Source of the DNA: Candidatus Nanopusillus sp. | Lineage (GTDB): Archaea; Nanobdellota; Nanobdellia; Nanobdellales; Nanobdellaceae | NCBI GenBank assembly: GCA_036845085.1 | Contig: DAIUEN010000001.1 | Span: forward strand, 1-32,000 | Direction of reading: 5' to 3' | DNA length: 32,000 nt | Part shown: positions 236 through 29,781 of the stretch, piece after piece | How positions within the stretch are numbered: the stretch's first letter is position 1 | How the letters are laid out: every line of letters starts with the position of its first letter | The notes under the pieces: model-generated | The model's database searches: none | What the model saw: only the letters and a program-made list of their open reading frames with translations | What the model was told of the DNA's origin: nothing | Program-made: the position numbers and the translations under genes

Positions 236-1699
236 TTACCATGTTCTTAATATTGCTGTTATATATGAGCCTATAGGATAATCTATTGGATAGTAAAAGT
301 AAAAAGTATATACCGTTACTCCTTCTGGTATCTTATAACCCAATTCTATTGGCTTTCCTCCACCTTCTGCTATATATTTGTTTAATTCATGTACTTTTCC
401 CTCTTCAGTAATGCAGAATAATCTTAAAAAAGAAATTCCATTTGGACCTAGATGAGGATCATTATATACATTTGAAACAATTATGTAGTTAGTATCTGGA
501 TCTCTTTCTTCAATGACCCACTTAGTTATATTTATCTCCGCACCGATTACACCATACGGAGAACCACATGGAAACGCTCGTAGGTTTGGATTTATCAATG
601 GACAGGTCTTTCCATCTCCTTTTTCTGGACAATTATTAATACATTTGAATCCAAATAAATATACATAATCTGGTTTTTTATTTTTGTTTAAGTAAGAAAT
701 ATATACCCTAGCAACCTCGTGGCCAAATATATCTATATAAACTTGTTTGCAAAATGATGGTATTTTTACGGTACCTCTATAATATGCTTGTACAACGGGA
801 TTTTTATAGTATTTATCTATGTTAATTAAATCTAAATAAACAGCTAGTAATGTTATATCTGTACCAGTTTTATAATTTGGTGGTCCTGGATAATGAACTA
901 AGTAGTAATTATATCTTACAAATTCTGGTAAATTTGGATCTGACTTTGCGTTTATAGCACCAAAAACATTCCATTCTCCCTTTGGACAGTATATAGATGC
1001 TTCAGTAAAGTTAGAATTTGGTAATAATCTGCTTAATGGAATACATCTACCAGATTGTACTGCTTGAATTGTGTCGCCAGTACCTGCTAATAATTGTGTT
1101 ATTCCCCAAGAAGCTATAGAACCATATTGGTAAAAAGGAGCTGTAGCATTAATCCATCCAGCTCCTATCAAATTTTGAGCTACATAATAATTTTTTACAA
1201 ACATGTAATTATAATCAAATTCATACCAGTTCTTTCCATTTTCATCTTTTGGTGGATCAAATCTTCCAGGATCCCATGCTTCGGCTTTTGGACCTTCTAT
1301 GGGTTCTCCTATAACTAAAAACATTTGAACATTCCATCCTGTCAATGGAGGAACTACAAATATTGTTAAATTCCACCTATCTCCATATATTTTATTAAAA
1401 TATTTAGTAACTTCTTCTTTTATATTGACACATCTCTCAGAATTTATACAATATGTTTCATTATTAGAAGTAGAGTAATATGCTATTAAAAATCCTAAAG
1501 ACTTATTTACTGGCGCTATATCTACATATGGTAATAATAAAACAGAATTTTGTAATGTTTTAGAGAATTGACTATATTTTATACTTTCCTCTATATTTTT
1601 TCTATTAGAATTTCCAGATAATATTATATATAACATTAAAGCAGATAATATTGCTCCAACTATTATTGTTAATAATAAATAGTTAATTTGATTCTTCAT
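236..1699 (-). CDS. Hypothetical N-terminally membrane-anchored surface protein (487 aa); last gene of the surface operon
   Basis: Long ORF whose start overlaps the upstream gene's stop by 4 nt. The N-terminus MKNQINYLLLTIIVGAILSALMLYIIL is a single hydrophobic helix. The rest is Tyr/Asn/Pro/Cys-rich with many N-x-S/T sequons. I recognise no family. Confidence 0.6.
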   Translation of the reverse strand: MKNQINYLLLTIIVGAILSALMLYIILSGNSNRKNIEESIKYSQFSKTLQNSVLLLPYVDIAPVNKSLGFLIAYYSTSNNETYCINSERCVNIKEEVTKYFNKIYGDRWNLTIFVVPPLTGWNVQMFLVIGEPIEGPKAEAWDPGRFDPPKDENGKNWYEFDYNYMFVKNYYVAQNLIGAGWINATAPFYQYGSIASWGITQLLAGTGDTIQAVQSGRCIPLSRLLPNSNFTEASIYCPKGEWNVFGAINAKSDPNLPEFVRYNYYLVHYPGPPNYKTGTDITLLAVYLDLINIDKYYKNPVVQAYYRGTVKIPSFCKQVYIDIFGHEVARVYISYLNKNKKPDYVYLFGFKCINNCPEKGDGKTCPLINPNLRAFPCGSPYGVIGAEINITKWVIEERDPDTNYIIVSNVYNDPHLGPNGISFLRLFCITEEGKVHELNKYIAEGGGKPIELGYKIPEGVTVYTFYFYYPIDYPIGSYITAILRTW

Positions 1700-2538
1700 T
1701 TTTTCTTAACTATATATATAATCAACAATATAGAGCCTATTAAAAATGTTATCAAACCTATTATTATTCCAGTAAGGTCTCTATTGGCCTCTTGTTTTAA
1801 TCTAGTAATATTTGAAGTATAATTATACATTATTTGACTTATTTCATTATCTTCTTTCTTTTCCAAACATACGAATCTTCCATTACATTCTATATTTACT
1901 TTTCCTGAAGGACAAAATTTTTCTATAAATATATTATACAGATAAGTTAAATTATATTGTTTTGGATTGATATACCATAAAGTTCCTAATTCTTCTGGAT
2001 TTTTTATATCTTCTATAGATATATTTCTATAACATCCTGCCATACTTCTCCAATAATATATATCGTTTGGAGGATTTATTATGTATGGGGGATCAAAACA
2101 TGGATAGTTATAATTTGAACATCCTTGGTATAACCATGGTTCATTTTGGCATTCTAGCAAATTAGAACAAGTTTTATTTTCAAGAAATAAATCTTGTAAA
2201 AGTTCTATTGGCAATAAATAGTCTACCAAAACTTGAGTACCATTTGGAAATACACAATGTAATTCTGGATAATCTGCTACATATTCTATTTTTGGTGATA
2301 AATTTAGTTTATTGCATAAAGAATATTCTAAACCTTCTAATCCTCTATAAAATTTTTCAGCATCAAAATATATACCATTAATTATACAGTAAGTAGAACC
2401 ATTATCTGCTAAATAAAATTTTCCACCAACATATTCACAATATACTGCTATAGGGTTTCTCAGAGAAAATGTATTATTAACAAGTATTAAAAGTATGACA
2501 AGAAAAGTCATTAACTTTAAAAGAAGATTGTATTTCAT
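1696..2538 (-). CDS. Cys-rich surface protein with an N-terminal signal, a DUF333-like domain and a C-terminal TM anchor ending in KKK
   Basis: RNPIAVYCEYVGGKFYLADNGSTYCIINGIYFDAEKFYRG resembles the DUF333 pattern NPAsvYC...GGk...G...C...G...eW.FfrG. I count 12 Cys. The C-terminus is LTGIIIGLITFLIGSILLIIYIVKKK. Confidence 0.6.
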   Translation of the reverse strand: MKYNLLLKLMTFLVILLILVNNTFSLRNPIAVYCEYVGGKFYLADNGSTYCIINGIYFDAEKFYRGLEGLEYSLCNKLNLSPKIEYVADYPELHCVFPNGTQVLVDYLLPIELLQDLFLENKTCSNLLECQNEPWLYQGCSNYNYPCFDPPYIINPPNDIYYWRSMAGCYRNISIEDIKNPEELGTLWYINPKQYNLTYLYNIFIEKFCPSGKVNIECNGRFVCLEKKEDNEISQIMYNYTSNITRLKQEANRDLTGIIIGLITFLIGSILLIIYIVKKK

Positions 2539-2547
2539 TGATAAATT

Positions 2548-3858
2548 TTATATAGTAACATTTTTAAGTCCAACCATTGCCCATCCAAAACCAAATACCT
2601 TCGCAGATACCGGAAATGTACATCCAAATGGGGTCTTTTTTATGTCACAATATGGTACATACATGAAGCCATCTCTATGTATATAACCATAAGCCCTCCC
2701 ATTTATTGATCCCCAAGAATTTTGTATAATCCAACATTCAGAAACACCATAAGCCTGTCTACATATTTCAGAGTTATCATCAAATCCTACCAAAAGTACC
2801 GCATGTCCTCCACAATCATAACCAAAATAGCTAATTAAACAACCAGAAATAGCTATAGGACCATAGCATAATAAATATTTTTTTATAGTTTCCGTGTCTT
2901 TTTCATCTGTAGAAAATGCTATGATATCTGCAGATTTTATTTTATATTTTAAATTGAATTTCGAAGGATCTTCACATACAGCTCCACAGACATTTGCATT
3001 ATAAGCTCTTGGAGCTCCACTACTGGAAGGACAATTTCCTAGTCTATATGGATTTTCATCTTCTGAAGATACGCCATATCTGTTCATATAACTTATGAAA
3101 GAGTCTACAGGATATCCACCGTCACATCCAAAACTTCTACATGATCCATATGGAGAACCATAATTGCAGCAAACTGTAATTTCTTGTCTAGATATCCTTA
3201 AGTTCATATTAGGTTTGTCATTTCTTATCATATATACAGAAGCAACTAAGTTTGCTGCAGCATTGGCCCAACAATTTCCACATATCCCTTGATTTTGAAC
3301 TGGTGGTAAATAATTTTTTCCATTTACATTACCCCAAAAAAATCTTTTTTGTCCATTGTATTCAAATAAACATCCTTCTTTATTCATTTGATTATTGTTA
3401 TTATTTTCGTTATTATTTTCATTGTTACTTTCTTTTTCTTCTGTACTTTCGTTTCCAATTATATTAAATATGTCTACTAGTGGTTGGGGTGTAGAAACGT
3501 TAATTATTATGTAAGGTGGATTTATATAAAAGTTTATTTCTTTTCCTTCTTTATTAATTAAGGAAACATTTTCTGGCAATATAATTGAGAAATTTTTACC
3601 ATAATACTCAAAAATTAGACTATTATTTTCTTTATATACTAATACACCTTCTGGAATATTTAATAATATAATATAGTTGTACGGAAAGGAATACATTGCA
3701 TATACCAAATCTTGTAAGTTGTTTAAATAATTTTGAAATAAAATATATTCTTGTTGTTTTTTTGTATTATAACTATATGAAAAATATATCATTAAAGCCA
3801 ATCCAACAATTAATAATAATATACCAACGTTTAATATATTTAATTGAGATCTATTCAT
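2548..3858 (-). CDS. Membrane-anchored papain-like cysteine protease (peptidase family C1) with an N-terminal TM helix, an unknown domain and an Asn-rich linker
   Basis: Papain motifs are intact: VQNQGICGNCWANAA (Gln190, Cys196), GCDGGYP, CGGHAVLLVGFD (His352) and IIQNSWG (Asn380). The N-terminal anchor is NILNVGILLLIVGLALMIYF and the linker is SNNENNNENNNNN. Confidence 0.85.
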   Translation of the reverse strand: MNRSQLNILNVGILLLIVGLALMIYFSYSYNTKKQQEYILFQNYLNNLQDLVYAMYSFPYNYIILLNIPEGVLVYKENNSLIFEYYGKNFSIILPENVSLINKEGKEINFYINPPYIIINVSTPQPLVDIFNIIGNESTEEKESNNENNNENNNNNQMNKEGCLFEYNGQKRFFWGNVNGKNYLPPVQNQGICGNCWANAAANLVASVYMIRNDKPNMNLRISRQEITVCCNYGSPYGSCRSFGCDGGYPVDSFISYMNRYGVSSEDENPYRLGNCPSSSGAPRAYNANVCGAVCEDPSKFNLKYKIKSADIIAFSTDEKDTETIKKYLLCYGPIAISGCLISYFGYDCGGHAVLLVGFDDNSEICRQAYGVSECWIIQNSWGSINGRAYGYIHRDGFMYVPYCDIKKTPFGCTFPVSAKVFGFGWAMVGLKNVTI

Positions 3859-3882: not shown

Positions 3883-4341
3883 TTAAGTCTTTATGGGTAA
3901 TAACGTTATTGTCACCGTATCTGGTTTTGTTTTTTCAATCAATAGGTTTAGTATTTGATAATCTTTTCCATAAAAAGCGTAATAATATGTTCCGTTTTTA
4001 TAGTATTTTAATGTTTTATCTTCAGAGTTTATTTCTATTTTACAAGTAGACTTGTATGTATGATTTTTGTTATAATTTCCATAATTTATAGAACATATCA
4101 ATTCATAGTCTCTAGATAAAACAAAATTCAAATATTTATATGCATAAAAGTCATAATATATTTTAGTTTCGTTAATAGAATAGCAAACTCTTTCTATATA
4201 TTTATATAATATTTGACATTGATTTATTTGTTCATATAAATTCTTAGTTTGGGTATTTATATTTAGAAATTTATAATATAGTCCTAAAGATATTGCAAAT
4301 ATGGCAATTCCAATACCTATCCAAAGCCATTTATCCATCAT
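3883..4341 (-). CDS. Small N-terminally anchored hypothetical protein (152 aa); surface operon
   Basis: 4-nt start/stop overlap with the upstream gene. N-terminal helix WLWIGIGIAIFAISLGLYY. No recognisable domain. Confidence 0.5.
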   Translation of the reverse strand: MMDKWLWIGIGIAIFAISLGLYYKFLNINTQTKNLYEQINQCQILYKYIERVCYSINETKIYYDFYAYKYLNFVLSRDYELICSINYGNYNKNHTYKSTCKIEINSEDKTLKYYKNGTYYYAFYGKDYQILNLLIEKTKPDTVTITLLPIKT

Positions 4342-4745
4342 TGTAATTCTAATTCAATATATTGACCATTATATTTGATTATAACAAAACTTTCATCTTT
4401 TATTGTAAATGTACATCTTTTCATTACTACATCTGGATTATAGCTTTTTACAAGGTCTAACAATTCATCGCAGTTTATATCTTCTCCTTTATATTGTACA
4501 ACATAACAAGTACCAATCTTTTTTTGATTATAGCATGAAATAATATTTAGGGCTAATGTATTTGGATTATCTACATTTCTTTGTACATTTACATCGGCAG
4601 TATTATTTTTATTAAACATTGTGTCTATATAACTAGAAGCATTTGTTTTAAATTTTACTATTAAACCGATTAGCGTTGCTGTTACAATTAGTCCCATAAT
4701 TATTAAAAAAGTATATTTTATAGGATCTTGACTTTTCATTGCCAT
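4338..4745 (-). CDS. Small N-terminally anchored hypothetical protein (135 aa); surface operon
   Basis: Overlaps both neighbours. N-terminal helix YTFLIIMGLIVTATLIGLIV. Confidence 0.5.
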   Translation of the reverse strand: MAMKSQDPIKYTFLIIMGLIVTATLIGLIVKFKTNASSYIDTMFNKNNTADVNVQRNVDNPNTLALNIISCYNQKKIGTCYVVQYKGEDINCDELLDLVKSYNPDVVMKRCTFTIKDESFVIIKYNGQYIELELQ

Positions 4746-5221
4746 AATATTATTTTACTTTCATTGTATATTATAAATATACTTCTCATTGGATAAAATT
4801 CATTGCTATTATTTGAGGAATAAAAGTCTAATCTATCAGGATTAAATTGAGAATACTTATTTACATATTCTTTTATTTCGTTAAAGTTTATTATTGTATC
4901 ACTATTGCTTATATAAAAGTCATAACACAATGAAAATAATAAATCTGAACCGTAATATTTGTTATAGCAACTAACAATTAAACCAGTTATAATCTTTAGT
5001 ATTTCATCTTTATTGGAGGAATTTATTTTTATTTTTTCTGTATTTGGATAATAATCTTTACATTCTGGAGAAAATGCTTTTTGGGTGGCTAGCTGACTAC
5101 AATAATAGTTTTGAGATTTACTTAAGAATAAAGTATAAATCATATATATTAATGTTGCAATTGAAAATAATGCTATTATTAGTATAAATATTTGATCAAT
5201 AGTTAAATCACTTCTTTTCAT
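4736..5221 (-). CDS. Small pilin-like N-terminally anchored hypothetical protein (161 aa); surface operon
   Basis: N-terminus MKRSDLTIDQIFILIIALFSIATLIYMIY is a short basic leader followed by a hydrophobic helix. It resembles the N-terminus of the first operon gene. 4-nt overlap with the upstream gene. Confidence 0.5.
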   Translation of the reverse strand: MKRSDLTIDQIFILIIALFSIATLIYMIYTLFLSKSQNYYCSQLATQKAFSPECKDYYPNTEKIKINSSNKDEILKIITGLIVSCYNKYYGSDLLFSLCYDFYISNSDTIINFNEIKEYVNKYSQFNPDRLDFYSSNNSNEFYPMRSIFIIYNESKIILWQ

Positions 5222-5502
5222 TTGTAAGTAATATTACCTTGATATATATAAATTATTCTGTATCCTTCTGGTATTTCAATTCCATTTATAGTACAATTAC
5301 CCCTAAGATAACCTTTTTTTTGAACGACTCTATAATAACTTTCATTATAATATCTATATATATCAATACAAGTTATAATAGATTCTTCTTTTTCTTCTGT
5401 TAAATTCTTAATTTTACTCAGATAATAGAAAGAAAATATAGCTCCTATTAATATTAATATAAAGGATAAAGTGATCCAGTAATAGTTATATTGATTTTTC
5501 AT
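5218..5502 (-). CDS. Small N-terminally anchored hypothetical protein (94 aa); surface operon
   Basis: N-terminus MKNQYNYYWITLSFILILIGAIFSFYYL shares the MKNQxNY start with the 487-aa protein. 4-nt overlaps on both sides. Confidence 0.45.
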   Translation of the reverse strand: MKNQYNYYWITLSFILILIGAIFSFYYLSKIKNLTEEKEESIITCIDIYRYYNESYYRVVQKKGYLRGNCTINGIEIPEGYRIIYIYQGNITYK

Positions 5503-7469
5503 ATTTGGAAAGACGTTGGTATATATGGGCCAAATATTGTATTTACGGCTATTAAACCAAGAGTGGAAAATATTACATAGAATATTGTACCAACTATTAA
5601 GTTTCTTCCTATATAATAATATATCATTGTTTCATCGAATCCGTATTTAATACCTGCTGTGAAAAAAGAGGTTATTATTACAAATTCTATGAAAAATATA
5701 CCAATTATTGCTTGGAAATATGATGGGGGAATTAAATTAGCTAAATTAAATGTTGAAATTATTAATTGAGATAAATCTGCAGCCCCCGATAGACCAAAAG
5801 CTGCGCTAATGGTCTGGAAAAAATACGCTATTGCAAATAGCATAGATATTATTGCACTATTAAATATTGTTACTAAAGAAGACATAAATGGTACTATACT
5901 TTTTGATACATTATCTAATAACCCTATAACTTCATCTAACATTCTTCTTACCTGAATTCTTATATCTACAACTTGCTCTAAATTCTTAGATACGTTATAA
6001 CATATTTGAGATAAAACTTTAGGTCCTTTATTTGTGGAATATATAATTAGCTGTAATGTTTCATAAATAATTTTGGAAGGATAATAATTAATAGATCCAT
6101 AATTTTTGTCGAATATTGATTGTATTAGATTTAATCCTTTCCTTAAATTAAATATTGTGAGCTTTAAAAAATTTTCTAATATTCCTGAAAGTTTTATAAT
6201 CTTATAATTTTGATATGTTTTTTCTAATACTATTTCCATTGGATATCCATCTTCTAATAATGATGCAAACTCGTATACTATAACAGGGAATTCAAATTCC
6301 ATTTCTTCTATTTCATTAGCTCTTTTAACCTTTTGGAAGGAATTTAAATAAAAATAAGATCCTATAGATAATCCAATACCTAATGGTAGAGTTAGCATTA
6401 TTAATGCATTTATTACAGATCTATCTTGAAAAATAAAGTTAAGATAAGTGGATAGAGCTCCTTCTGGAATATAAAGTAATTTTATTGATATTTGTGCTAA
6501 ATGATATATTGCAGGAATTGATAATGTAGCAAATAATATTATGAAAGGAAAGATTGATACTTCTTTATTTCCAATTTTAACTCTATTCTTTTTTGGTAAG
6601 TCTTTAGCTAATGAGAGATCTGGAGTTGAAAATGCGAATGGATTTTGAGATAATAAATTTTGTATAACTAAAAAAGTTAATATTGGTAAGATAATTATAT
6701 ATCCAAATGCTATAAAGTAAAAACTAACATTATTTAAAAGGAATACCGACATTATTGGTAGCATAAGTATACTAACAATTGGCAAAACAATTAAAAAAGA
6801 AGTTATAGCAACAGCAGGCTGTTTTAGTTTTTCTACATATTCATACGATTTTTGGTAAGCTTTTTTTAGTATCCAAGATAATAATCTATCTAATAGCGCA
6901 TTTATTTCTTCCTCAGTTCTTCTATATTTTATATTTAATAAGTGAGACATTATATATACAAAATCTGGTGATAAATAGAACCATCTTATTGCATAATATT
7001 CTAAAGCTTCTTCTAATATTCTAAATCTTTTGTTTTCTAAATCATATAATAATTTTTTAAAATCTGTTGCTATGATACCTTTCATATAATATGCTACGTA
7101 TTGTATTGCTTTTTCTAAATTTGGATTTCTCTTTAAATATAAAACTAAGTATAAAGTAACCCACACAGATTCTGAAGTTGCAGCAATTTTTACTATTTTT
7201 GTATAAAATATGGGAAAATATGCTAAATAAAAATCTATGATTAATAATGCAATTAGTAAAGAAAAAGCAAATTGAAAAGAAATAAGTGATAATATAAAAT
7301 ATAATATAAAAGATAATATTAATAGAAATAAAACTGATGAAAAAATATTTGTAGAAGTAGTTTCTAGTTTATTTAACCATAAATTAAAATTATAAATTTT
7401 TTTAAGTTTTCCGGGAGGGTCTATTTTAAATAAAGAAAAAGTATTATAAAAAAATTCAAAAAAATTCAT
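5499..7469 (-). CDS. Polytopic membrane protein, FlaJ/TadC/PilC-like (putative type IV filament platform protein)
   Basis: 656 aa with about 9 predicted TM helices. Two large soluble helical segments (roughly aa 91-215 and 376-530) sit between TM bundles, the architecture of archaeal FlaJ/TadC (two T2SSF-type repeats). The assignment rests on architecture and loose motif resemblance only. Confidence 0.5.
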   Translation of the reverse strand: MNFFEFFYNTFSLFKIDPPGKLKKIYNFNLWLNKLETTSTNIFSSVLFLLILSFILYFILSLISFQFAFSLLIALLIIDFYLAYFPIFYTKIVKIAATSESVWVTLYLVLYLKRNPNLEKAIQYVAYYMKGIIATDFKKLLYDLENKRFRILEEALEYYAIRWFYLSPDFVYIMSHLLNIKYRRTEEEINALLDRLLSWILKKAYQKSYEYVEKLKQPAVAITSFLIVLPIVSILMLPIMSVFLLNNVSFYFIAFGYIIILPILTFLVIQNLLSQNPFAFSTPDLSLAKDLPKKNRVKIGNKEVSIFPFIILFATLSIPAIYHLAQISIKLLYIPEGALSTYLNFIFQDRSVINALIMLTLPLGIGLSIGSYFYLNSFQKVKRANEIEEMEFEFPVIVYEFASLLEDGYPMEIVLEKTYQNYKIIKLSGILENFLKLTIFNLRKGLNLIQSIFDKNYGSINYYPSKIIYETLQLIIYSTNKGPKVLSQICYNVSKNLEQVVDIRIQVRRMLDEVIGLLDNVSKSIVPFMSSLVTIFNSAIISMLFAIAYFFQTISAAFGLSGAADLSQLIISTFNLANLIPPSYFQAIIGIFFIEFVIITSFFTAGIKYGFDETMIYYYIGRNLIVGTIFYVIFSTLGLIAVNTIFGPYIPTSFQI

Positions 7470-7478: not shown

Positions 7479-8258
7479 TTACGAAGTTCTTTTTGCACCA
7501 CCAGAATAAGAATTTAATATATGTTCTGGAATATGAGTTAATACATCACATAGAGGCAGAATATTTACATCCCCAGTAAATCCTAATTCTTTACATTCTC
7601 CACTTGCTTCTACATTTAGACTTCTTGTTTCGTCATCTATGACTATATTGAATTCTACTCCGTCACATTTTGTTGTACTATAATAGTTTAGTACGTTCTT
7701 AATTGCTTTAAATATTTGATTTTCTATCCAAGTAGGTATTCTACCACCACATGATCTTTGAGGTCCAGGATTTAATATTTTTGAAGGATTTGAGAATGAA
7801 ATAGATATAGAATTTTCTCCAAATTCTATATTAGAATATTGACCAAATACTTCTTTTGTAGCTTTATCTGGATCAAAATTTAAATCAAATATATAGTATT
7901 TACACATTATTTGCATACAGTAAACTGGAGTCAAAGAATATCCTTTATAAGAACAGGCTGTATCTCTTCCATATTGTTGCATTACAACAGAACATGGTAC
8001 AGAATCTGCACAAACGTAATAACCACTTGTTAGCTCTGTAAATCCTCTTCCAATTGCTACATATCTTTGACAAAATTCTACTGGACTGTTACATACTTCA
8101 GAACATGTAGAAACAGCTTGTTGTATTTCTGTATTAGCTATAGTACCTACTTTTGAGGCTTGCTGTGAAAACATTCTTAATGCAATTACTACTATTACTA
8201 ACATTACAATTATTATAAATACTAATTGTATAGCCATGTCTAATGCTCTTTTCCTCAT
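7479..8258 (-). CDS. Cys-rich secreted/anchored protein with a pilin-like N-terminus (259 aa); first gene of the operon
   Basis: N-terminus MRKRALDMAIQLVFIIIVMLVIVVIAL has a basic leader, a small residue and then a hydrophobic helix, like a class III signal peptide. I count 12 Cys in the extracellular part. A TATA-like element lies upstream. Confidence 0.55.
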   Translation of the reverse strand: MRKRALDMAIQLVFIIIVMLVIVVIALRMFSQQASKVGTIANTEIQQAVSTCSEVCNSPVEFCQRYVAIGRGFTELTSGYYVCADSVPCSVVMQQYGRDTACSYKGYSLTPVYCMQIMCKYYIFDLNFDPDKATKEVFGQYSNIEFGENSISISFSNPSKILNPGPQRSCGGRIPTWIENQIFKAIKNVLNYYSTTKCDGVEFNIVIDDETRSLNVEASGECKELGFTGDVNILPLCDVLTHIPEHILNSYSGGAKRTS

Positions 8259-8312: not shown

Positions 8313-8720
8313 TTAATATCTTATTATAAAAGAAAATTCTTTTTCTTCTCTTATTTTTTCAATTACTTTTCTTTCTATATCAATAGCTGATTTTTCTGAA
8401 TTGATTGCTATAGTTCTACTATCTATGTAAGTGCTTTTTCTTATTACAATACTATTTTTATCTGAAAAAATTAAATTTTTATGGCCGTATGCGTAAAATT
8501 TGTCTATAATGTCGTCAACTTTTATTATTATTTCTATTTTGTTTCCATTTAGTAAATATTCTTTTAAATCATTTGGTAAATCACTTGCAGAATGGGAGGC
8601 CTTTATTCCTATTATACAGTCTCCTCTTTTTGTTAAATAGTTGTCTTTAGTAATTTCTAAGGTAGATTTGTGTGTTGCTCTTATATTTTTATGTCCATAA
8701 ACCTTAATTACGAATTCCAT
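8313..8720 (-). CDS. DUF371 family protein
   Basis: HKNIRATHKSTLEITKDNYLTKRGDCIIGIKA matches my recollection of the conserved archaeal DUF371 N-terminal motif (H..T.E.T.d..LT.rGDCI.G). Confidence 0.6.
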   Translation of the reverse strand: MEFVIKVYGHKNIRATHKSTLEITKDNYLTKRGDCIIGIKASHSASDLPNDLKEYLLNGNKIEIIIKVDDIIDKFYAYGHKNLIFSDKNSIVIRKSTYIDSRTIAINSEKSAIDIERKVIEKIREEKEFSFIIRY

Positions 8721-9573
8721 TTAAATATTTCAATATATCTCTCATTACATTTTTACCAACATATTTTTCAAAACCTTCAAATTGAAATATGTGATGTATG
8801 TCTATTACATAATACTCATTATCTTTTATTAATATGTCGAAGGCAAATATTTGTAAATCAAGTTTTTCAGAGATTTTATAACATATTTCTTTTAATTCTT
8901 CATTTAGTTCAAATGGTTTTCCATATCCGCCCTGGCTTATATTAGCTTTAAATGTTCCTTGATTTATTCTTTGCATACCCCCATATGGTTCCCCTATGAA
9001 TATTATTCTTACATCTTTTTCATATGGTATATATTTCTGGAAAATTAAAAATGGAAGCTTTCTTATATTTTCTGGATTATTCATGAAGAAATCTTTTAAT
9101 TCTTCTCTATTATTAATTAAATATACAAATTCTCCTCTATGTCTTAGAGAATGTTTTATTACTAATGGATAACCAATATATTTTTCTATAAGATGTAAAT
9201 TATTCATAGAATATATCTTGATAAATTTTGGTATATTTACAATTTTATTAACGCTATCATACATCAAAGTTTTATCTATTAGTCTGTACTTTTTATATAT
9301 GCCATTTATTATGATTTTTCCATTTTCATCTAAATATTTCGCTAAAAAATTTGTATCATATTTTGTTGATGCGCCTACAAAAAAATAGTAGATATCATCT
9401 TTAAGTATATCTTCGTTAAAAGGATATGTTATTCTAGATTTTAATTCTATTATTTTTATATTTTTGAAGTTTGCTATTTCTTCCTTTAATCTTCTAATTC
9501 TATAATCTCCATCATAATAACTTCCAATTAAAATTGTAATATTTGCCATAATTTTTATAGAAAAATTAGTCAT
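8704..9573 (-). CDS. ATP-grasp family ligase (RimK-like)
   Basis: ATP-grasp signatures are present: GYPLVIKHSLRHRGEFVYLI, FLIFQKYIPYEKDVRIIFIG, FKANISQGGYGKPFEL and FAFDILI. The true start could be the internal Met at 9549. Confidence 0.7.
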   Translation of the reverse strand: MTNFSIKIMANITILIGSYYDGDYRIRRLKEEIANFKNIKIIELKSRITYPFNEDILKDDIYYFFVGASTKYDTNFLAKYLDENGKIIINGIYKKYRLIDKTLMYDSVNKIVNIPKFIKIYSMNNLHLIEKYIGYPLVIKHSLRHRGEFVYLINNREELKDFFMNNPENIRKLPFLIFQKYIPYEKDVRIIFIGEPYGGMQRINQGTFKANISQGGYGKPFELNEELKEICYKISEKLDLQIFAFDILIKDNEYYVIDIHHIFQFEGFEKYVGKNVMRDILKYLNGIRN

Positions 9574-11484: not shown

Positions 11485-13293
11485 ATGTCTTCCGAAGTTT
11501 ATCTAGATGATATCTTTATAGGATATGTAGATAATCCGTTAGAGTTTATTGAGAAATTTAAAGAAAGTAGAAGAAAAGGTGTTATTCCATATTTTATCAA
11601 TATAGGATATGACGAAAAAACCAATACAGTTCATATTTCTGCTAGAAAAGGTAGATTACTGAGACCCTTAATTGTTGTAAAAAACGGAAAACCTCTATTA
11701 ACTGAGGAACATATAGAAAAATTGAAAAAAGGTGAGATTAGATGGAAAGATTTAGAAGAACAAGGAATTATAGAGTACTTAGATCCTTTGGAAGAAGAAA
11801 ATGCTGTTGTTGCTTTGGAAGAGAAAGATATAAATGAAAATACAACGCATCTGGAATTATCTCCTTTGGTTATATTCGGTATTATAACTTCTTTAGCTCC
11901 GTTTTCGAATCATAATCAATCTGCTAGATTAAATAGGGGAATAAGGCCTATGAAACAGTCTCATGCTATTTATTCTTTAAACTACCCCATTAGATTTGAT
12001 ACTGATATATCTGTTGCATATTATCCTCAAACTCCAATTGTTAGAACTTTTTCTCATGAAATTTTCAAAGAACAAGATGCTATAGGACAAAATGTCATTG
12101 TTGCGGTAATGACTCAAGAGGGTTATAATATAGAGGATGCTATTATTCTTAATAGAGCCTCTGTAGAAAGAGGGTTATTTAGATCTGTATATTTTAGATC
12201 ATATGAATTAGAAGCATTGAAATATCCTAGTGGACTACAAGATGATATAACTATACCAGAACCAGATGTTTATTTATATAGAGGAAGAGATAAATACAAA
12301 TATTTAGAAGATGATGGAATTGTTGCATTAGAGTCTTATGTTAAAGAAGGTGATGTACTTGTAGGAAGGGTTTCTCCTCCAAGATTTAGTGGATTGGTAT
12401 CTGAAAGTTTAACTGGTTCTCTTGGAAAAAGGGATACTTCTTTAGCTGTTGAATATGGACATGAAGGTTATGTAGATTCTGTAATTTTAACCGAATCTGG
12501 AGATGGAAATTTATTAATAAAAGTTAGATTGAGAAGTTTAAGAATTCCTGTTTTAGGTGATAAATTTGCTGTCAGGCATGGACAGAAAGGTGTTGTTGGT
12601 ATGATTGTAGATGAATCAGATATGCCATGGACAGCTTCTGGAATAAAACCGGATATAATTTTTTCACCTTTTGGTATTCCTTCTAGAGAAACGGTGGGAT
12701 TGTTACTAGAATTGCTTGCTGGAAAAGTGGGAGCTTTAAGTGGAAGATGTGTTGATGGTACTCCTTGGTTTGGTGAAAAAGAGGAAGACTTAAGAAAAGA
12801 GTTACTAAGATTAGGTTTTAGAGAAGATGGAACAGAAACAATGTATAATCCTTGGACAGGTGATGAATTTAAAGTTAAAATATATATTGGAAGCTTATAT
12901 TACATGAGATTGAAACATATGAGTAAAAACAAATTACAAGTTAGAGCAATAGGACCTGTTACTTTGTTAACGAAACAACCTACTGAAGGAAAATCTAAAG
13001 GTGGTGGTCTTAGGTTGGGAGAAATGGAAAATCTTGTTTTAGCAGGTCACGGAGCTTCCATTTTATTAAGAGAAAAATTCTCCTCTGATGACTGGGTTAT
13101 ACATGTATGTGAAACTTGTGGTTCCATAGCTGTTGAAGATAAAGCTAGAAATAGAGTTTACTGTCCAGTATGTAATGAAACAGAAAAAATATCAAAAATT
13201 AAAACATCTTATGCCTTTTTTGTTCTAATTAGAGAATTGATGTCTTTAGGTATATGGCCAAGACTTAAACTAAAGTATAAATTTGAAAAATGA
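11485..13293 (+). CDS. rpoB1: DNA-directed RNA polymerase subunit B' (C-terminal part of split Rpo2)
   Basis: GDKFAVRHGQKGVVG, PDIIFSPFGIPSRETVG, GGLRLGEME and a C-terminal Zn ribbon CETCG...CPVC. Confidence 0.96.
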   Translation: MSSEVYLDDIFIGYVDNPLEFIEKFKESRRKGVIPYFINIGYDEKTNTVHISARKGRLLRPLIVVKNGKPLLTEEHIEKLKKGEIRWKDLEEQGIIEYLDPLEEENAVVALEEKDINENTTHLELSPLVIFGIITSLAPFSNHNQSARLNRGIRPMKQSHAIYSLNYPIRFDTDISVAYYPQTPIVRTFSHEIFKEQDAIGQNVIVAVMTQEGYNIEDAIILNRASVERGLFRSVYFRSYELEALKYPSGLQDDITIPEPDVYLYRGRDKYKYLEDDGIVALESYVKEGDVLVGRVSPPRFSGLVSESLTGSLGKRDTSLAVEYGHEGYVDSVILTESGDGNLLIKVRLRSLRIPVLGDKFAVRHGQKGVVGMIVDESDMPWTASGIKPDIIFSPFGIPSRETVGLLLELLAGKVGALSGRCVDGTPWFGEKEEDLRKELLRLGFREDGTETMYNPWTGDEFKVKIYIGSLYYMRLKHMSKNKLQVRAIGPVTLLTKQPTEGKSKGGGLRLGEMENLVLAGHGASILLREKFSSDDWVIHVCETCGSIAVEDKARNRVYCPVCNETEKISKIKTSYAFFVLIRELMSLGIWPRLKLKYKFEK

Positions 13294-15965
13294 TGAACGA
13301 GATTTTTCCTAAAAGAATAGGATTCATACAATATTCATTATTGAGTCCTGACGCGATTAGAAAAATGTCTGTAGCTAAAATTATTGTTCCAGAACTATAT
13401 GACGAAGAAGGAATGCCAGTGAGAGGTGGTTTAATGGATTTAAGACTTGGTGTTGTAGATCCTGGTCTTGTATGTGAAACCTGCGGGAAGAGTGTTGGTA
13501 AATGTCCTGGTCATTTTGGCCATTTAGAGTTAGCAAGGCCGGTATTTCATATAGAATTTATTCCAATAATTAAAGAACTTGTTAATGCAGTATGTACAAA
13601 TTGTGGTAGGGTTAAATTGACCGAAGAGGAAATTGATTTTGCAGAGAAAAAAATTGAAAAATATAGAAGAAATAGGAACTGGAGGCTATTAGATAAATTT
13701 TTAAGAAAATATGTCTATTATAAGGCAAAAAAAAGATTGAAATGTCCGCACTGTGGATTTGAAAATCAAAAGATAGAATTCAGAAAGCCATATATATTTT
13801 ACATTAAGACACAAGACGGAGAAAGAAGAATATTTCCTACGGAAATAAGGGCTATATTTGAGAAAATACCTGACAGAGATGCTTTCGTTTTAGGATTTCA
13901 TCCAGTTTATGCTAGACCTGAATGGACGATATTGACCGTTTTACCAATACCTCCAGTTACAATTAGACAGTCTATAATATTAGAAACTGGAGAAAGATCT
14001 GAAGATGATCTTACTCATAAGCTTGTAGATATAGTTAGATCAAACCAAAGATTAAAGGAAGCTATAACAACCGGAGCTCCTCAGACAGTAATTAGAGAAT
14101 TATATGATCTGCTGCAATATCATATTTCTACATATTTCCACAATAATGTTGCTGGTTTACCAGTAGCAATTCATAGATCTGGGAAGCCAATAAAATCTCT
14201 TGTAGAGAGAATAGTTGGTAAAGAAGGTAGAATAAGATATAATTTACTTGGAAAGAGAACAAATTATAGTGCAAGAGCTGTTATATCCCCAGATGTAAAA
14301 ATAAAATATAACGAAGTTGGAGTTCCTATTAAAGTTGTAATGTCTTTAACAATTCCTGAAAGAGTTACAGAATATAATATAGATAAATTAAAAGAATATG
14401 TACTTAATGGTCCTAATAAGTATCCTGGGGCGAATTATGTTATTGCTCCTGATGGTAAAAGGAGGGTTATAACTGAAGAAAATAAAGAAACACTTGCGTC
14501 TCAATTAGAACCTGGATGGATTGTTGAAAGGCATATATTAGATGGAGATATTGTGTTATTCTTAAGGTATCCATCTTTACACAGATTATCTATGCAAGGA
14601 CATTATGTTAAGGTTCTTCCTGGCGATACATTTAGATTACACCCCGCAATTGTTAAACCATATAATGCAGATTTTGATGGAGATGAAATGAATATATTTG
14701 TACCTCAAAGTGAAGAGGCTAGAGCTGAAGCAGTGTTATTACTAGAAGCATCTAATCATGTAATATCTATAAAACACGGAGAATTTATGGTTGGAGCAAT
14801 TCAGGAAGCAATTACTGGTTTATACTTATTGACAAAAGACAATCCAGAAATACCAATAGATATTGCAATGCAATTAGTATATTGGTCTGGAAATAAAGAG
14901 GTATATATAAATAAATTAATAAGATTCATTAAAAAAGCAAGAGAAGAAAATAGAGATTATTTGACTGGATATGAAATAGCATCAGTATTTTTACCGGATG
15001 ATTTAAACTATAAAGATGATAAAATTACAATAGAAAATGGAGTTATTGTTGACGGATATCTAGATTCTTCTTTAGTAAAAGCAGAAAAAGGAAAATTATT
15101 TGCTTATGTATATGTAAATTATGGAAAAGATATTGCTTCCGATTTAATTAACTCATATTTTTTACTAGGGGTTTATTATCAGTATATATTGGGAATTACT
15201 ATGAGTATTTCAGATCTAGATTTACCTGAAGAAGCCAAATTAGAGATAAATAACATAATAGAAGAAACGATGAAGAAGATAGAAAAGATATATGATGACT
15301 TCAAAGAAGAAAAATTAGAAAGAATACCTGGCAAAACATTAAAGGAAACATATCAATTAATGACAATTCATGAAATATCAGGATCTTTAACACAAATACA
15401 GAAGGTATTAATGAAATATATGAAAAAAGATACCGGAACTTACGTAATGTCTATTACAGGAGCAAGAGGAGACTGGACAAATATAACAAAAATGGTGGGA
15501 TCTCTAGGTTTTCAAGTATTTAGAGGGAAATTCATAGAATTTGGATATAATGATAGGAATCTATCTATATTTCCAAAGGGATTATACCATCCTCTTTATT
15601 ATGGTTGGGTTGTTTCATCATTCTTAGATGGTTTAAAATCTTGGGAGATGTTTTATCACTCACTTACCGGAAGAGATTCTTTAATGGATACTGCTATAAG
15701 AACGGGACAATCTGGATATTTCTATAGAAGATTATCTCATAGTTTATATGAATTATATGTAAGTTCTAATTTGGTTGTAAAAGATAATTTTGGCAGAATA
15801 GTACAATTTTTATATGGGGATGATGGTATTGCAGTACATAAAACACCATCTGGAAAAATTGATATTAACATGTTTATCGAAAAGGCTTTAAAAATGTATT
15901 CTGAAAATAAGAAGAAGGATGGAGATACCAAAAAAACTACTAGAAGAACTAAGAGAAAAAATTAA
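13290..15965 (+). CDS. rpoA1: DNA-directed RNA polymerase subunit A' (Rpo1N)
   Basis: Catalytic NADFDGDEMN motif, Zn-binding CETCG...CPGHFGH and RYPSLHRLSM. ATGA overlap with the rpoB' stop. Confidence 0.97.
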   Translation: MMNEIFPKRIGFIQYSLLSPDAIRKMSVAKIIVPELYDEEGMPVRGGLMDLRLGVVDPGLVCETCGKSVGKCPGHFGHLELARPVFHIEFIPIIKELVNAVCTNCGRVKLTEEEIDFAEKKIEKYRRNRNWRLLDKFLRKYVYYKAKKRLKCPHCGFENQKIEFRKPYIFYIKTQDGERRIFPTEIRAIFEKIPDRDAFVLGFHPVYARPEWTILTVLPIPPVTIRQSIILETGERSEDDLTHKLVDIVRSNQRLKEAITTGAPQTVIRELYDLLQYHISTYFHNNVAGLPVAIHRSGKPIKSLVERIVGKEGRIRYNLLGKRTNYSARAVISPDVKIKYNEVGVPIKVVMSLTIPERVTEYNIDKLKEYVLNGPNKYPGANYVIAPDGKRRVITEENKETLASQLEPGWIVERHILDGDIVLFLRYPSLHRLSMQGHYVKVLPGDTFRLHPAIVKPYNADFDGDEMNIFVPQSEEARAEAVLLLEASNHVISIKHGEFMVGAIQEAITGLYLLTKDNPEIPIDIAMQLVYWSGNKEVYINKLIRFIKKAREENRDYLTGYEIASVFLPDDLNYKDDKITIENGVIVDGYLDSSLVKAEKGKLFAYVYVNYGKDIASDLINSYFLLGVYYQYILGITMSISDLDLPEEAKLEINNIIEETMKKIEKIYDDFKEEKLERIPGKTLKETYQLMTIHEISGSLTQIQKVLMKYMKKDTGTYVMSITGARGDWTNITKMVGSLGFQVFRGKFIEFGYNDRNLSIFPKGLYHPLYYGWVVSSFLDGLKSWEMFYHSLTGRDSLMDTAIRTGQSGYFYRRLSHSLYELYVSSNLVVKDNFGRIVQFLYGDDGIAVHKTPSGKIDINMFIEKALKMYSENKKKDGDTKKTTRRTKRKN

Positions 15966-17037
15966 AGATTTACCAGAAGAAAAGCAAAGAGAAATAGAAG
16001 AAGAATTTATAAATTTCTATAAAAAATTTTTAATAGATCCTGGTGAACCTGTGGGGATTATTGCATCTCAATCTATTGCAGAGCCAACTACTCAGATGAT
16101 ACTAAAGTCATTCCACTTTGTTGGTGGTGGTTTTGAATCTAAAGCTTCTTTGGGTTTGCCAAGATTGTTAGAAATAGCTGATGCAAGAAAAAAAGTAAAA
16201 AATAAGGTTACTAAAATATATTTAATAGAAGAATATAAAAAAGATTATCAAAAAGCATATGAAGTTGCTTTGAGAATTAAAGAAGTTGTTTTGGAAGATT
16301 TAACTTCTGAAATAGCTTTGGATATATTCGAAAATAAGATAATTATATCATTGGATGAAAAAAAATTAGAAAAAAATAATCTAAGCGAGGAAGAAGTTTA
16401 TAACATATTAAAAAAGAAATTAAAAAAATATAAAGTAGAGCTAGAAGGAGGAAATATAGTCATATTTGCTGAAAAAATAAAATCAAAGGATTTGTATTTG
16501 CTTAAAAACAACATAAAGAAAATACACATAAAAGGTATACCTGGAATTAAAGATGTTACTATAAAAAGGGAGGATGAAGAATATGTTATATACGCATCTG
16601 GTTCTAATTTAATGGAACTAATGAAAATACCAGAAATAGATTATAGAAAGATATATACTAATGATATAAAAGAAATAGAAAAAGTTTTTGGTATAGAAGC
16701 AGCTAGGGAGGCTATATTTAGAGAGCTAGTAAAATTATATGCTGAACAAGGTTTTAAAGTAGATCCAAGACATTTCGCATTATTAGCAGATGTTTTAACC
16801 TGGCATGGAGAATATCTCGGTATCAATAGATATGGTCTACAATCTGAAAAGGCATCGACATTATCTAAAGCATCATTTGAAGTACCTATTAGGATATTAA
16901 TGACTGCTGCTTTAAGAGGGGAAGAAGATCCTGTTAGTTCATCGATAGATAACTTAATAATGAACCAAGTTATTCCGCTTGGTACTGGTCTATATGACAT
17001 ATATTATAAAGGAGAAATGAATAAAAAAGTTTCATAA
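15919..17037 (+). CDS. rpoA2: DNA-directed RNA polymerase subunit A'' (Rpo1C)
   Basis: GEPVGIIASQSIAEPTTQM (trigger-loop region) and the C-terminal LMTAALRGEEDPVSSSIDNLIMNQVIPLGTG. With the only available ATG start it overlaps the rpoA' 3' end by 47 nt. Confidence 0.93.
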   Translation: MEIPKKLLEELREKIKDLPEEKQREIEEEFINFYKKFLIDPGEPVGIIASQSIAEPTTQMILKSFHFVGGGFESKASLGLPRLLEIADARKKVKNKVTKIYLIEEYKKDYQKAYEVALRIKEVVLEDLTSEIALDIFENKIIISLDEKKLEKNNLSEEEVYNILKKKLKKYKVELEGGNIVIFAEKIKSKDLYLLKNNIKKIHIKGIPGIKDVTIKREDEEYVIYASGSNLMELMKIPEIDYRKIYTNDIKEIEKVFGIEAAREAIFRELVKLYAEQGFKVDPRHFALLADVLTWHGEYLGINRYGLQSEKASTLSKASFEVPIRILMTAALRGEEDPVSSSIDNLIMNQVIPLGTGLYDIYYKGEMNKKVS

Positions 17038-17820: not shown

Positions 17821-18636
17821 ATGGTCTTTAGCGATACTATCATGGCCTTTGTGTATTATTTTGGATTTTTGGTAGTATCATTAGTAGTAGCATTGATAGT
17901 AGGATTTGTAGCATATAGAGTATTAGATAGAGTATTAGATAGATTAATAGAACCATACTATAATAAGTTTTATGAAGAATTAGGAACAAAGAGACCAGTA
18001 GATTTTTCAACAACGGTATCTGTAATATTAAGTGTATTATTTGGAGTATTGTCTTTTACTTGGGCATTTAACAATTTAATGAGTATAGTATCTTTAGATT
18101 ATTATACGATATTGACTCCATATATTGAAGTAACTTTAGCTGCAGCTGCTACAATATTTGGAGTTACTGGAGTAATATTTCTAATATTTGTAGGTACATT
18201 CTTTGCACTATTCTTTAGCTGGTACATATATAGGATGGTTTCTCCATATAGAGAAGATGTAGCATCACTACTAAGATTATTGCTATTCATAGGTTTAGTA
18301 TATGTTGTTTCTGTATCTTCATTAAGTGCATTAAACCTTGATGATGCAGAAATATTTGGATACATATTGGGAGCATTTGTAGTATTGTCAATAGGATGGG
18401 CAATTATAGAATTTGTTATGGAAAAAGTATCGAATACAAAGTCATTTGAAGAAATAAAACCATTCTTAGAATATTTCCTATTTGGAATCTTTATACTTTC
18501 AGCTTTATCCGTTTTAACCTTAGGATATAATGCAATTTCACAATCAACAATAAATATATTTGCCTGGGCCTTTGTTTTGATATTAGTAATAGCATTGGTA
18601 CCTTTTGTTATAAAGGCAATAAAATCTATATATTAG
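17821..18636 (+). CDS. Polytopic integral membrane protein of unknown function (271 aa)
   Basis: About 7 hydrophobic helices. Codon usage matches the neighbouring genes. No motif I recognise. Confidence 0.65.
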   Translation: MVFSDTIMAFVYYFGFLVVSLVVALIVGFVAYRVLDRVLDRLIEPYYNKFYEELGTKRPVDFSTTVSVILSVLFGVLSFTWAFNNLMSIVSLDYYTILTPYIEVTLAAAATIFGVTGVIFLIFVGTFFALFFSWYIYRMVSPYREDVASLLRLLLFIGLVYVVSVSSLSALNLDDAEIFGYILGAFVVLSIGWAIIEFVMEKVSNTKSFEEIKPFLEYFLFGIFILSALSVLTLGYNAISQSTINIFAWAFVLILVIALVPFVIKAIKSIY

Positions 18637-19284: not shown

Positions 19285-20115
19285 TTATTCAAATACTTTT
19301 TTGTATATATCTTTTAGTTGTGTTGGGACAACATGAGTATATACCTGTGTAATACTCAATGATGAGTGACCCAATAATTCTTGTATAAATCTAATATCAA
19401 CACCTTTTGACAGTAAAGTTGTAGCTAAAGAATGTCTAAGAACGTGTGGAGTTACTTTTTTATTTATACCAGCTTTAATGGTAGCGTTTTTTATTATTCT
19501 TTCTACTTGTCTAGTTGATAGCGGAAATATTCTATCACTATTAGTTTCTTTAATATATTCTCTTAATTCATTTAATAGAAAGCTTGGTATTGGAACAATT
19601 CTTTCTTTTCCACCTTTTCCATATATCTTTACAAAACCATCAGTCCAGATTATATCACTCTTTTTTATATTGACTAATTCGCTTACTCGGACTCCGGTAT
19701 AAAATAAAAACTTTATAATTAATCTATCTCTTTTATTATCTACAGCTTCTAATAATCTATTAAATTCTTCTAAAGTTATAAATTTAGGCAATTTTTTATC
19801 AACTTTTGGTGCTTTTATTTGTTTTGCTAATTGCTCATTATCTAAAAATTTTAAAAAAGAAGATATAGCTCTGACGTATAATCTTAAAGAATTATAATCT
19901 AGGTTTTTGTTTACTTTTATATTTGCAAGAAATTTGAATATCAAATTTCTGTTCATATATGTTTGTAATACGTACATATCTATTTCGTTTGCTTTTAGCT
20001 CATTTTTTAGGAAATCTAAAAGCTTTTTTATTACAATAGAATATGTTTTTATTGTATTTTTTGATTTACCCTGAAGTTCTAACCATACTTTGTATTGATC
20101 TAAGATATTATCCAT
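19285..20115 (-). CDS. xerA: Tyrosine recombinase, XerA/XerC/XerD family
   Basis: Catalytic motifs are present: TGVRVSELVNI (Arg), HVLRHSLATTLL (H-x-x-R) and ELLGHSSLSITQVYTHV (His and Tyr). The ORF extends to 20184. I place the start at Met24 (20115) because a TATA-like element lies about 30 nt upstream and the extension has no homology. Confidence 0.88.
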   Translation of the reverse strand: MDNILDQYKVWLELQGKSKNTIKTYSIVIKKLLDFLKNELKANEIDMYVLQTYMNRNLIFKFLANIKVNKNLDYNSLRLYVRAISSFLKFLDNEQLAKQIKAPKVDKKLPKFITLEEFNRLLEAVDNKRDRLIIKFLFYTGVRVSELVNIKKSDIIWTDGFVKIYGKGGKERIVPIPSFLLNELREYIKETNSDRIFPLSTRQVERIIKNATIKAGINKKVTPHVLRHSLATTLLSKGVDIRFIQELLGHSSLSITQVYTHVVPTQLKDIYKKVFE

Positions 20116-20164
20116 TGTTATAATGGAATACTTTAGAATATTTATATTTTTCTCTAAATAGAAT

Positions 20165-29780: not shown

Positions 29781-29781
29781 G

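Follow-up and report, generated by a model that had tools for sequence, protein, structure and literature searches.

We analyzed a 32,000-nucleotide stretch of Candidatus Nanopusillus sp. DNA (contig DAIUEN010000001.1, positions 1 to 32,000; hereafter, the window), in which a gene on the minus strand (2548..3858) encodes a modular cysteine peptidase of the papain family (C1A) of 436 amino acids (aa). We propose that this protein would act as an active extracytoplasmic C1A endopeptidase of a Nanopusillaceae ectosymbiont, with the catalytic domain (residues 163-436) hung by a flexible Asn-rich linker on an N-terminal display module, and that the gene would lie within a cluster that is conserved vertically, is coupled in translation and has its origin in a type-IV-filament (TFF) system. 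The module would keep the protease at the surface, where it would be either a membrane protein beside the apparatus or a minor filament subunit. There, the enzyme would cut external proteins, of which those of the host S-layer or surface at the contact site are the most likely. Taken as a whole, the proposal that a surface-displayed protease of a type-IV-filament-like apparatus cuts host envelope proteins has, in our estimate, an even chance of being correct.

The gene, defined from the open reading frame (ORF) list and its PF00112 match, runs from an ATG start to a stop codon at 2548-2550, and an identical protein (100%; P0001) is present in public collections. Profile, PDB and papain alignments delimited the papain-family catalytic domain to residues 163-436 plus the stop codon (2548..3372, minus strand). 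Pfam Peptidase_C1 (PF00112) matched residues 182-394 with 88.7 bits (gathering score 20.7, E=7.6e-25), and a phmmer search of PDB sequences retrieved 152 papain-family chains at E<=0.01, with cathepsin C (1jqp), Blo t 1, falcipain/falcipain-2 and cathepsin K as the top matches. The codons of the catalytic set were located at 3289-3291 (Gln190), 3271-3273 (Cys196), 2803-2805 (His352), 2719-2721 (Asn380) and 2713-2715 (Trp382). Gln190 and Cys196 sit in QNQGICGNCW, and the Cys, His and Asn-Ser-Trp-Gly columns align with PDB C1 chains; that is, C196 is aligned with the catalytic Cys of cathepsin C, and N380-S-W-G with the NSWG of cathepsin C and Blo t 1. BLASTP against mature papain gave E=2e-12 and paired Q190/C196/H352 with Q19/C25/H159. 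The same alignment placed C193/C245, C230-231/C276 and C349 at the papain disulfide positions C22/C63, C56/C95 and C153, respectively, and assigned no partner to C349. The original prediction, made from the DNA alone, had named these papain hallmarks; all the motifs, residue numbers and coordinates it quoted were correct, and the superposition of Cys and His on papain and of Asn on PDB C1 chains was borne out by the alignments.

We found no Inhibitor_I29 propeptide in the protease by Pfam at E<=0.1 and no ERFNIN or GNFD motif, as had been anticipated. The I29 propeptide is typical of eukaryotic zymogens and is not universal in prokaryotes. Accordingly, the protein carries every catalytic feature of a C1A peptidase and lacks only this optional element. 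The catalytic residues were kept in 8/8 orthologues. Across 40 family clusters, Cys and His were conserved in 40/40, Asn in 39/40, and Gln and Trp each in 38/40, indicating that the enzyme is under selection for activity. We consider the protease a complete and, judging from these residues, probably active C1A peptidase. Two family members from outside the window (P0062 and P0063) have S or T in place of the oxyanion Gln and Phe in place of Trp382, with Cys, His and Asn retained; both also have very long Gly/Ser linkers, and their activity may be altered or reduced. At the extreme C-terminus, an NVT sequon begins at Asn433 (codon 2560-2562; residues 433-436 correspond to 2551-2562, minus strand). 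This terminal N-glycosylation sequon, (A/V)(I/V)QNVT(L/I), was kept in 39/40 family clusters.

Full-length relatives were found only in Nanopusillus, Nanopusillaceae and Nanobsidianus assemblies and in the cultivated strain YN1, which originates from a spring at 78 C and pH 2.7 (PMC11420986). With a catalytic-domain profile, about 40 clusters (90% identity) of 470-568 aa scored 348-529 bits, compared with at most 118 bits for generic C1 peptidases. No other member of the family is as short or as divergent as the window protein, which is devoid of a Cys-rich insert of about 45 residues after NSWG. Existing database labels include "Peptidase C1A subfamily [Candidatus Nanobsidianus stetteri]" and "C1 family peptidase [Nanopusillaceae archaeon]". 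As homologues have already been automatically annotated as C1, the family assignment itself is not new. Whether this architecture is common in well-annotated archaeal families had been raised as a point against its novelty; it recurs in about 40 clusters at 90% identity, one of them labelled C1A, and these all lie within Nanopusillaceae, so that the concern holds inside this family and not beyond it. The taxonomic distribution is a lower bound, since the genome-collection scan relied on two short peptide patterns and missed YN1.

The papain family had also been described as uncommon in archaea, which does not agree with our results. C1-domain relatives were present in Methanospirillum, Methanothrix, Methanoregula, Thermoplasmatales, Bathyarchaeota and Altiarchaeales, and Kordis & Turk (2023) reported the papain family in all major archaeal lineages, DPANN included (PMC10380794). 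The closest relatives outside the family were P0065 and a protein in an Altiarchaeales metagenome-assembled genome (MAG). A recent horizontal origin of the protease could not be pinned down, the nearest outsiders being only about 30-40% identical. No paper on this gene was found in the searchable literature on Nanopusillus or Nanoarchaeota combined with papain, C1A, cysteine protease or peptidase.

The N-terminal part of the protein begins with the charged leader MNRSQ followed by a hydrophobic helix of about 22 residues (residues 1-28; 3775..3858, minus strand; sequence and AlphaFold2 (AF2) model). The remainder of this N-module (residues 29-125; 3484..3774, minus strand) consists in the AF2 model of the C-terminal half of a long helix and six to seven beta strands, and forms an orphan domain. 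It is followed by a low-complexity linker (residues 126-162; 3373..3483, minus strand) with an Asn-rich run, S144-N156, at exactly 3391-3429. The membrane helix, the domain of about 100 aa and the Asn-rich linker are thus all present as originally described. The family consensus of the N-module starts with MK[RK]xQLNLLS..., in which M1, Q5 and N7 are nearly invariant in 40 clusters. All structure models were built on shallow alignments of 4-7 sequences. For residues 1-138, a 7-sequence alignment gave a mean predicted local distance difference test score (pLDDT) of 78.5, with one helix at 3-56 and strands at 62-121; the hydrophobic segment forms the first half of this 54-residue helix. The model therefore reproduces the pilin-type arrangement of an alpha-1 helix of about 50 residues, the first 20 or so hydrophobic, with a beta-sheet head. 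We picture the display module accordingly as a putative charged leader of 4-5 residues, a hydrophobic stretch that would continue as the helix of about 54 residues, and a small beta-sheet.

Residues 1-125 were an orphan by sequence; that is, a profile search of 1.84 billion representatives returned six proteins, all from their own family. Within the gene cluster, hhalign matched the N-module to the N-terminus of a second large protein, p487, over residues 3-74 versus 2-72, with a probability of 79-86% and E of about 5e-6 to 2e-5. The linker had a pLDDT below 50 and was hypervariable in length and composition across the family, being rich in N, G and Q with NQT repeats and Gly runs, and Pro/Ser-rich in YN1; it separates the N-module from the enzyme by 30-90 residues. 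Mean pairwise identity in the Nanopusillus/Nanobsidianus group was 79-80% for the N-module and 66% for the catalytic domain, figures that are dominated by close sequences and form the basis for no selection argument. The divergent window protein showed the reverse pattern, with 29-36% identity in the N-module and 40-45% in the catalytic domain.

The arrangement in strain YN1 (AP031373.1; locus L089) separates the two parts of the protein. At 13201-14940, YN1 encodes a 579-aa protein composed of an N-module of the type found in p152, a small protein of the same cluster, followed by an Ig-like segment, a Pro/Ser linker and the C1 domain. Identity to p152 is 37% over residues 1-142 of this protein, and identity to the C1 domain is 39% over residues 285-568. 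Meanwhile, the Nanopusillus-type N-module occurs in YN1 as a stand-alone 141-aa gene further along the cluster (15785-16210). Because YN1 grafts the catalytic domain elsewhere and the N-module stands alone as a gene, we read the N-module as an interchangeable carrier, display or anchor module and not as a dedicated prodomain, a reading to which the related N-terminus of p487 and the hypervariable linker also lead. Of the two roles that the original prediction had offered for this domain, the evidence favours the targeting module.

The gene lies in a cluster with the order RimK, DUF371, p259, p656, p94, p161, p135, p152, C1, p280 and p487. From p259 to p487, the genes are co-directional and overlap by 4-10 nt or are spaced by 9-24 nt. 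The order was kept in six other loci (L002-L005, L007 and L008) and, with variations, in the complete YN1 genome. A surface operon in a reduced nanoarchaeal genome, as first suggested, agrees with these co-directional overlapping genes and with the relatives in Nanopusillus, Nanobsidianus and YN1. The cluster would comprise a platform of the TadC/FlaJ type, a single protein bearing a canonical class III signal, four to six pilin-like proteins that are small and bitopic, a DUF333 membrane protein and, in p487, another large protein that has the N-module of the protease. All of these genes are on the minus strand. p487 (236..1699) is a large bitopic protein with the N-terminus MKNQIN..., related to the protease N-module by hhalign, and is syntenic in all loci. 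p152 (3883..4341), the homologue of the YN1 carrier at 37% identity, is a small bitopic protein. p135, p161 and p94 (4338..5502) are small, N-terminally anchored proteins encoded by overlapping genes, with leaders of the MK(S/N)(Q/D) type. p656 (5499..7469) is a polytopic membrane protein, and p259 (7479..8258) is Cys-rich and has a textbook class III (prepilin-type) N-terminus, MRKRA↓LDMAIQLVFIIIV (arrow, cleavage site). Orthologues of p259 likewise start with a class III signal peptide, MKRRG↓IDMAVQL... or MKRRG↓IDMAVQLIFVII.

Searches of Pfam, NCBIfam and PDB assigned no curated family to p656, p259, p487 or the small cluster proteins. Among the cluster families, hhalign gave a convincing link only between the C1 N-module and p487; the weak pairs p94-p152 (57%) and p161-p135 (52%) may reflect similarity of transmembrane (TM) helices. 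Pfam T2SSF matched below threshold in 4/15 p656-family members (best E=1.8e-4), and the GspF cytoplasmic domain gave E=0.33. Two distant homologues stand in a TFF context. P0028 (19% identical to p656) is encoded directly downstream of a PF00437 T2SSE ATPase (L087/L088), and genes of the class-III-signal type come after it. P0020 (24% identical; L085) has a PF00437 ATPase upstream with one MFS gene between them and, downstream, small genes with K/R-G class III leaders and then Peptidase_A24. From the ATPase and class III context of these homologues and the weak T2SSF matches, p656 is inferred to be a divergent TadC/FlaJ platform protein. The locus of P0020 (6452-20566 of the distant DPANN contig CAXCYK010000032.1) is in itself a complete-looking TFF locus, with a T2SSE ATPase, an MFS transporter, a p656-family platform, about nine genes of the class-III-signal type and Peptidase_A24, indicating that the unannotated p656 family consists of platform proteins that Pfam T2SSF fails to recognise. 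Several FlaJ/TadC homologues are reported to be diversifying in Nanoarchaeota (PMC6142677), and nanoarchaeal TFF ATPases have been reported without identified cognate pilins (PMC4858521). We judge it fairly likely that the cluster is TFF in nature, representing the pilin/platform part of a system with its ATPase encoded elsewhere.

At least eight cluster proteins (in the window at 236-1699 and 3883-5502, and in L003 and the YN1 locus) share the leader MK(N/S/R)x(Q/D) followed by about 20 hydrophobic residues, with MKNQIN, MKSQE and MKNDI as examples; the canonical KR(G/A) prepilin site occurs only in p259. These leaders could represent a distinct, possibly uncleaved signal class in a lineage whose prepilin peptidase is reportedly missing. 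Ahead of the surface cluster, a RimK-type ATP-grasp ligase and DUF371 form an overlapping pair (8313-9573, minus strand), which was present in every locus reaching upstream of the cluster (the window, L002, L005, L007 and YN1).

The gene next to the protease encodes p280 (1696..2538, minus strand), which starts 9 nt after the protease gene and has a Sec-type signal peptide, two DUF333-like Cys motifs and a C-terminal TM anchor. Its match to Pfam DUF333 (PF03891) was below threshold (21.3 bits, cutoff 25, E=3.4e-4), and sub-threshold matches were obtained in 6/8 p280 orthologues. p280 is 35% identical (111 aa, E=1e-14) to a protein with PF03891 on record (L091, 1544-2290), whose gene comes after that of P0065; the latter is the nearest outgroup protease, with a catalytic domain 40% identical to that of the window protease and an N-terminal TM helix. 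In the Altiarchaeales MAG, a DUF333-like ORF (L009, 10614-11255) also follows the C1 gene, and it was the sole match (E=1.1e-14) when a hidden Markov model of the p280 family was searched against the ORFs of 80 loci. The proteases of Nanopusillaceae, P0065 and the Altiarchaeales MAG have an extra loop between His and Asn in common. As the C1-DUF333 pairing occurs in three lineages, the two-gene cassette is older than its capture by the nanoarchaeal cluster. By analogy, p280 could be an inhibitor, chaperone or anchor of the protease, for which the staphostatin/staphopain and Spi/SpeB operons are precedents; such a partner would explain the control of an enzyme without a propeptide. In YN1, the DUF333 gene is duplicated (283 and 172 aa). 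In the literature, the name DUF333 retrieved nothing but DUF333x families that are unrelated. A first indication of what DUF333 may do comes from its conserved pairing with C1 genes.

In the protease and its neighbours there are 17 Cys and seven N-glycosylation sequons, compared with 0-1 Cys in the cytoplasmic RimK and DUF371. Owing to the Cys residues at papain disulfide positions and this Cys- and sequon-rich neighbourhood, we predict with good confidence that the catalytic domain faces outside. Incorporation of the protease into a filament seems doubtful to us. The host S-layer is the most attractive substrate, because the symbionts must breach it and other DPANN proteases have been proposed to do the same; the host envelope as the actual substrate is possible, at somewhat less than even chances. 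The attachment-organelle proteins of YN1 and the way in which it permeates the outer layer of its host are unknown (PMC11420986).

Several results weigh against the proposal of a filament-associated protease. The leader lacks a canonical cleavage site; it reads MNRS↓Q in the window protein and MK[RK][YNDSL]↓Q across the family, where position 4 is Gly in 1/40. Pfam gave no match to a pilin family for the protease N-module, and the best Foldseek match of the N-module in PDB was the ribosomal uL6 beta-domain (E 0.01), with no pilin in the top 50. T2SSF yielded no significant hit for p656 of the window itself. No T2SSE ATPase or A24 peptidase was found in the 32-kb window or in the 22-kb YN1 locus, and two nanoarchaea are reported to be without a recognisable prepilin peptidase (PMC4858521). 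The full-length AF2 model (4-sequence alignment) had a pLDDT of 47 and was unusable for active-site geometry or domain docking. Furthermore, no result obtained here identifies the substrate of the protease, and a thiol enzyme in an oxidising, acidic exterior may need protection or activation. As a separate observation, a superoxide dismutase and two peroxiredoxins are clustered at 28666-31169 in this very reduced genome, which suggests oxygen exposure and bears on the question of how a thiol protease outside the cell is kept reduced.

Some of these points would fit an ordinary type II signal-anchor exoprotease that feeds an auxotrophic cell without any filament, its position in the cluster reflecting co-regulation only. 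The leader without a canonical prepilin site, the failure to match a pilin fold or family and the lack of an ATPase or prepilin peptidase nearby would all be expected of such an enzyme; secreted C1 peptidases are common in other prokaryotes, and YN1 is devoid of essential metabolic processes and dependent on host resources (PMC11420986). However, the gene has a fixed position beside the TadC-like platform and the class-III-signal protein in all loci, and YN1 re-grafts the catalytic domain onto a small cluster protein rather than a generic anchor. The higher identity of the N-module than of the enzyme in the Nanopusillus/Nanobsidianus group also tells against a purely nutritional role, although the window protein shows the opposite and we draw no selection argument from it. 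We regard nutrition alone as rather unlikely. Alternatively, the protease might trim or degrade the pilin-like proteins of its own cluster or the S-layer proteins of the symbiont. Tight translational coupling to 8-10 surface proteins would suit this maturation or turnover role, as would the strong link of transglutaminase-family surface peptidases to archaeal T4P (type IV pilus) loci, for which pilin processing or degradation has been suggested, and the prepilin peptidase reported missing in two nanoarchaea (both PMC4858521). Yet prepilin leaders are cut at the cytoplasmic face and the catalytic domain is predicted to lie outside, the exposed parts of the neighbours contain no conserved candidate cleavage motif, and the protease diverges faster than its neighbours (full-length identity 32-38% vs 40-65%), which is more typical of a changing external target. 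Maturation or turnover appears improbable to us. The narrower idea that the protease stands in for the missing prepilin peptidase was rejected on topology, given cleavage at the cytoplasmic face and a disulfide-type extracytoplasmic domain.

Two further explanations concern the protein itself. Residues 30-140 might be a novel inhibitory prodomain occluding the active-site cleft until removed, as the original prediction had considered, and some other control of latency would indeed be expected of an enzyme with no recognisable I29 propeptide. The idea did not hold up against the YN1 arrangement, in which the catalytic domain sits on a different module (p152-type plus Ig-like segment) and a 141-aa gene of its own encodes the N-domain, nor against the continuity of the N-domain with the membrane helix in the AF2 model, the hypervariable linker of 30-90 residues or the related N-terminus that heads the non-protease p487; we consider it very improbable. 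The protein could also be a catalytically dead pseudo-protease retaining only a binding (adhesin) domain, a view to which P0062 and P0063 lend something, since the oxyanion Gln is replaced and Trp382 is Phe in these 2/40 clusters. As the window protein and 38/40 clusters retain Gln, Cys, His, Asn and Trp, and Cys and His are kept in 40/40 despite an overall identity of about 35%, this can be given hardly any credence. A bolder version of the proposed surface-displayed protease can also be formulated. The protease may be a tip or minor "modular pilin" of a nanoarchaeal filament that opens the host S-layer for the cytoplasmic bridge, with the MK(N/S/R)x(Q/D) proteins as a new pilin class having an uncleaved or unconventionally processed leader of 4-5 residues, in organisms whose prepilin peptidase is reportedly absent, and the DUF333 partner as an inhibitor or immunity factor. 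That filament could correspond to the intercellular one that cryo-electron tomography has revealed in the attachment organelle of YN1 and Nanobdella. We attach only a slim chance to this combination.

We compared the window protease with known systems. It shares with papain and the cathepsins of C1A a common Pfam domain, Gln-Cys-His-Asn(-Trp) in the same motifs (QGxCGxCW, GHA and NSWG) and the papain disulfide Cys positions. In contrast to these enzymes, it is only 25-30% identical, has neither an I29 propeptide nor a Sec signal peptide, contains an extra Cys-bridged loop (DDNSEICRQAYGVSEC) between His and Asn, and has a membrane helix and an orphan domain as its N-terminus. The secreted multidomain C1A peptidases of Methanospirillum, Methanothrix, Altiarchaeales, Syntrophia, Dehalococcoidia and others are likewise extracytoplasmic, with catalytic domains 22-30% identical, and the Altiarchaeales and P0065 relatives resemble the window protease in both the His-Asn loop and the downstream DUF333 gene. 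Unlike the window protease, the secreted prokaryotic enzymes have a cleavable Sec-type signal, a stretch of about 80-120 residues ahead of the catalytic domain, and adhesion or Ig-type extensions at the C-terminus; the N-module is absent from all of them, and those examined all lie outside TFF-like clusters.

Modular type IV pilins (PMC8179133) offer a parallel in design. In these proteins, a functional module is likewise joined via a linker to a small helix-plus-sheet carrier, the gene likewise lies among minor-pilin-like genes beside a platform protein, and modules are swapped between carriers. Raynaud et al. (2021) described PilB/PilC of Streptococcus sanguinis and predicted bacterial pilins with S74 or M26 peptidase modules, and named the helix-plus-sheet "lollipop" topology as a hallmark of pilins (PMC8179133). 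A C1A cysteine peptidase is absent from the architectures listed in the text of that paper. Unlike these pilins, the window protease shows neither a canonical class III signal nor an IPR012902-type motif, does not match a pilin fold and comes from an archaeon. The protease works like a modular pilin but is not classed among the type IV pilins, having failed the tests for a cleavage site and for a pilin fold or family.

Among archaeal proteins, the transglutaminase-like papain-fold surface peptidases of Makarova, Koonin & Albers (2016) are also thiol peptidases of clan CA type linked to archaeal T4P clusters (PMC4858521). They differ in having a transglutaminase rather than a C1 core and in occurring in methanogens rather than Nanopusillaceae, and the window peptidase is fused to a cluster-specific anchor. 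The SPEARE proteins of Nanohaloarchaeota (PMC6642349) and the thermopsin-like proteins of Nanobdella aerobiophila (bioRxiv 10.1101/2023.10.27.564410) are also membrane-anchored extracellular proteases of DPANN ectosymbionts with a proposed role in host S-layer degradation. However, these are of the serine (SPEARE) and aspartic (thermopsin-like) classes, as opposed to the cysteine class of the window protease, and have giant multi-domain or C-terminally anchored architectures; SPEARE was reported to be absent from Nanoarchaeota. An archaeal C1A peptidase that sits on a pilin-like carrier, has DUF333 as its partner and belongs to a conserved gene cluster specific to symbionts is a variant of what is known and not a new category.

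The protease is a concrete candidate for how nanoarchaeal ectosymbionts breach the host S-layer, the cluster being present in every Nanopusillaceae locus examined, including that of a cultivated strain. The cognate pilins that are "missing" for the nanoarchaeal TFF ATPases may also be encoded in this cluster, and the protein would show, for an archaeon, how an enzyme can be attached to a pilin-like carrier. If one of the rival explanations is true, it would be a lineage-specific membrane-anchored member of a well-known protease family.

The G+C content of the window is 24-33%. Outside the cluster, its housekeeping genes include those for RNA polymerase subunits, ribosomal proteins and FtsZ, and one tRNA-Lys. 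A 271-aa polytopic membrane protein without a family match is encoded at 17821-18636 (plus strand) between the genes for ribosomal proteins S12 and S7, an unusual insertion in a conserved gene string. At 19285-20886 (minus strand), also between ribosomal protein genes, a tyrosine recombinase (Phage_integrase, 299 aa) adjoins an AbiEii-type nucleotidyltransferase toxin (232 aa); the two genes represent a small mobile islet or else a housekeeping recombinase of the XerA-like type accompanied by the remnant of a toxin-antitoxin or defence system.

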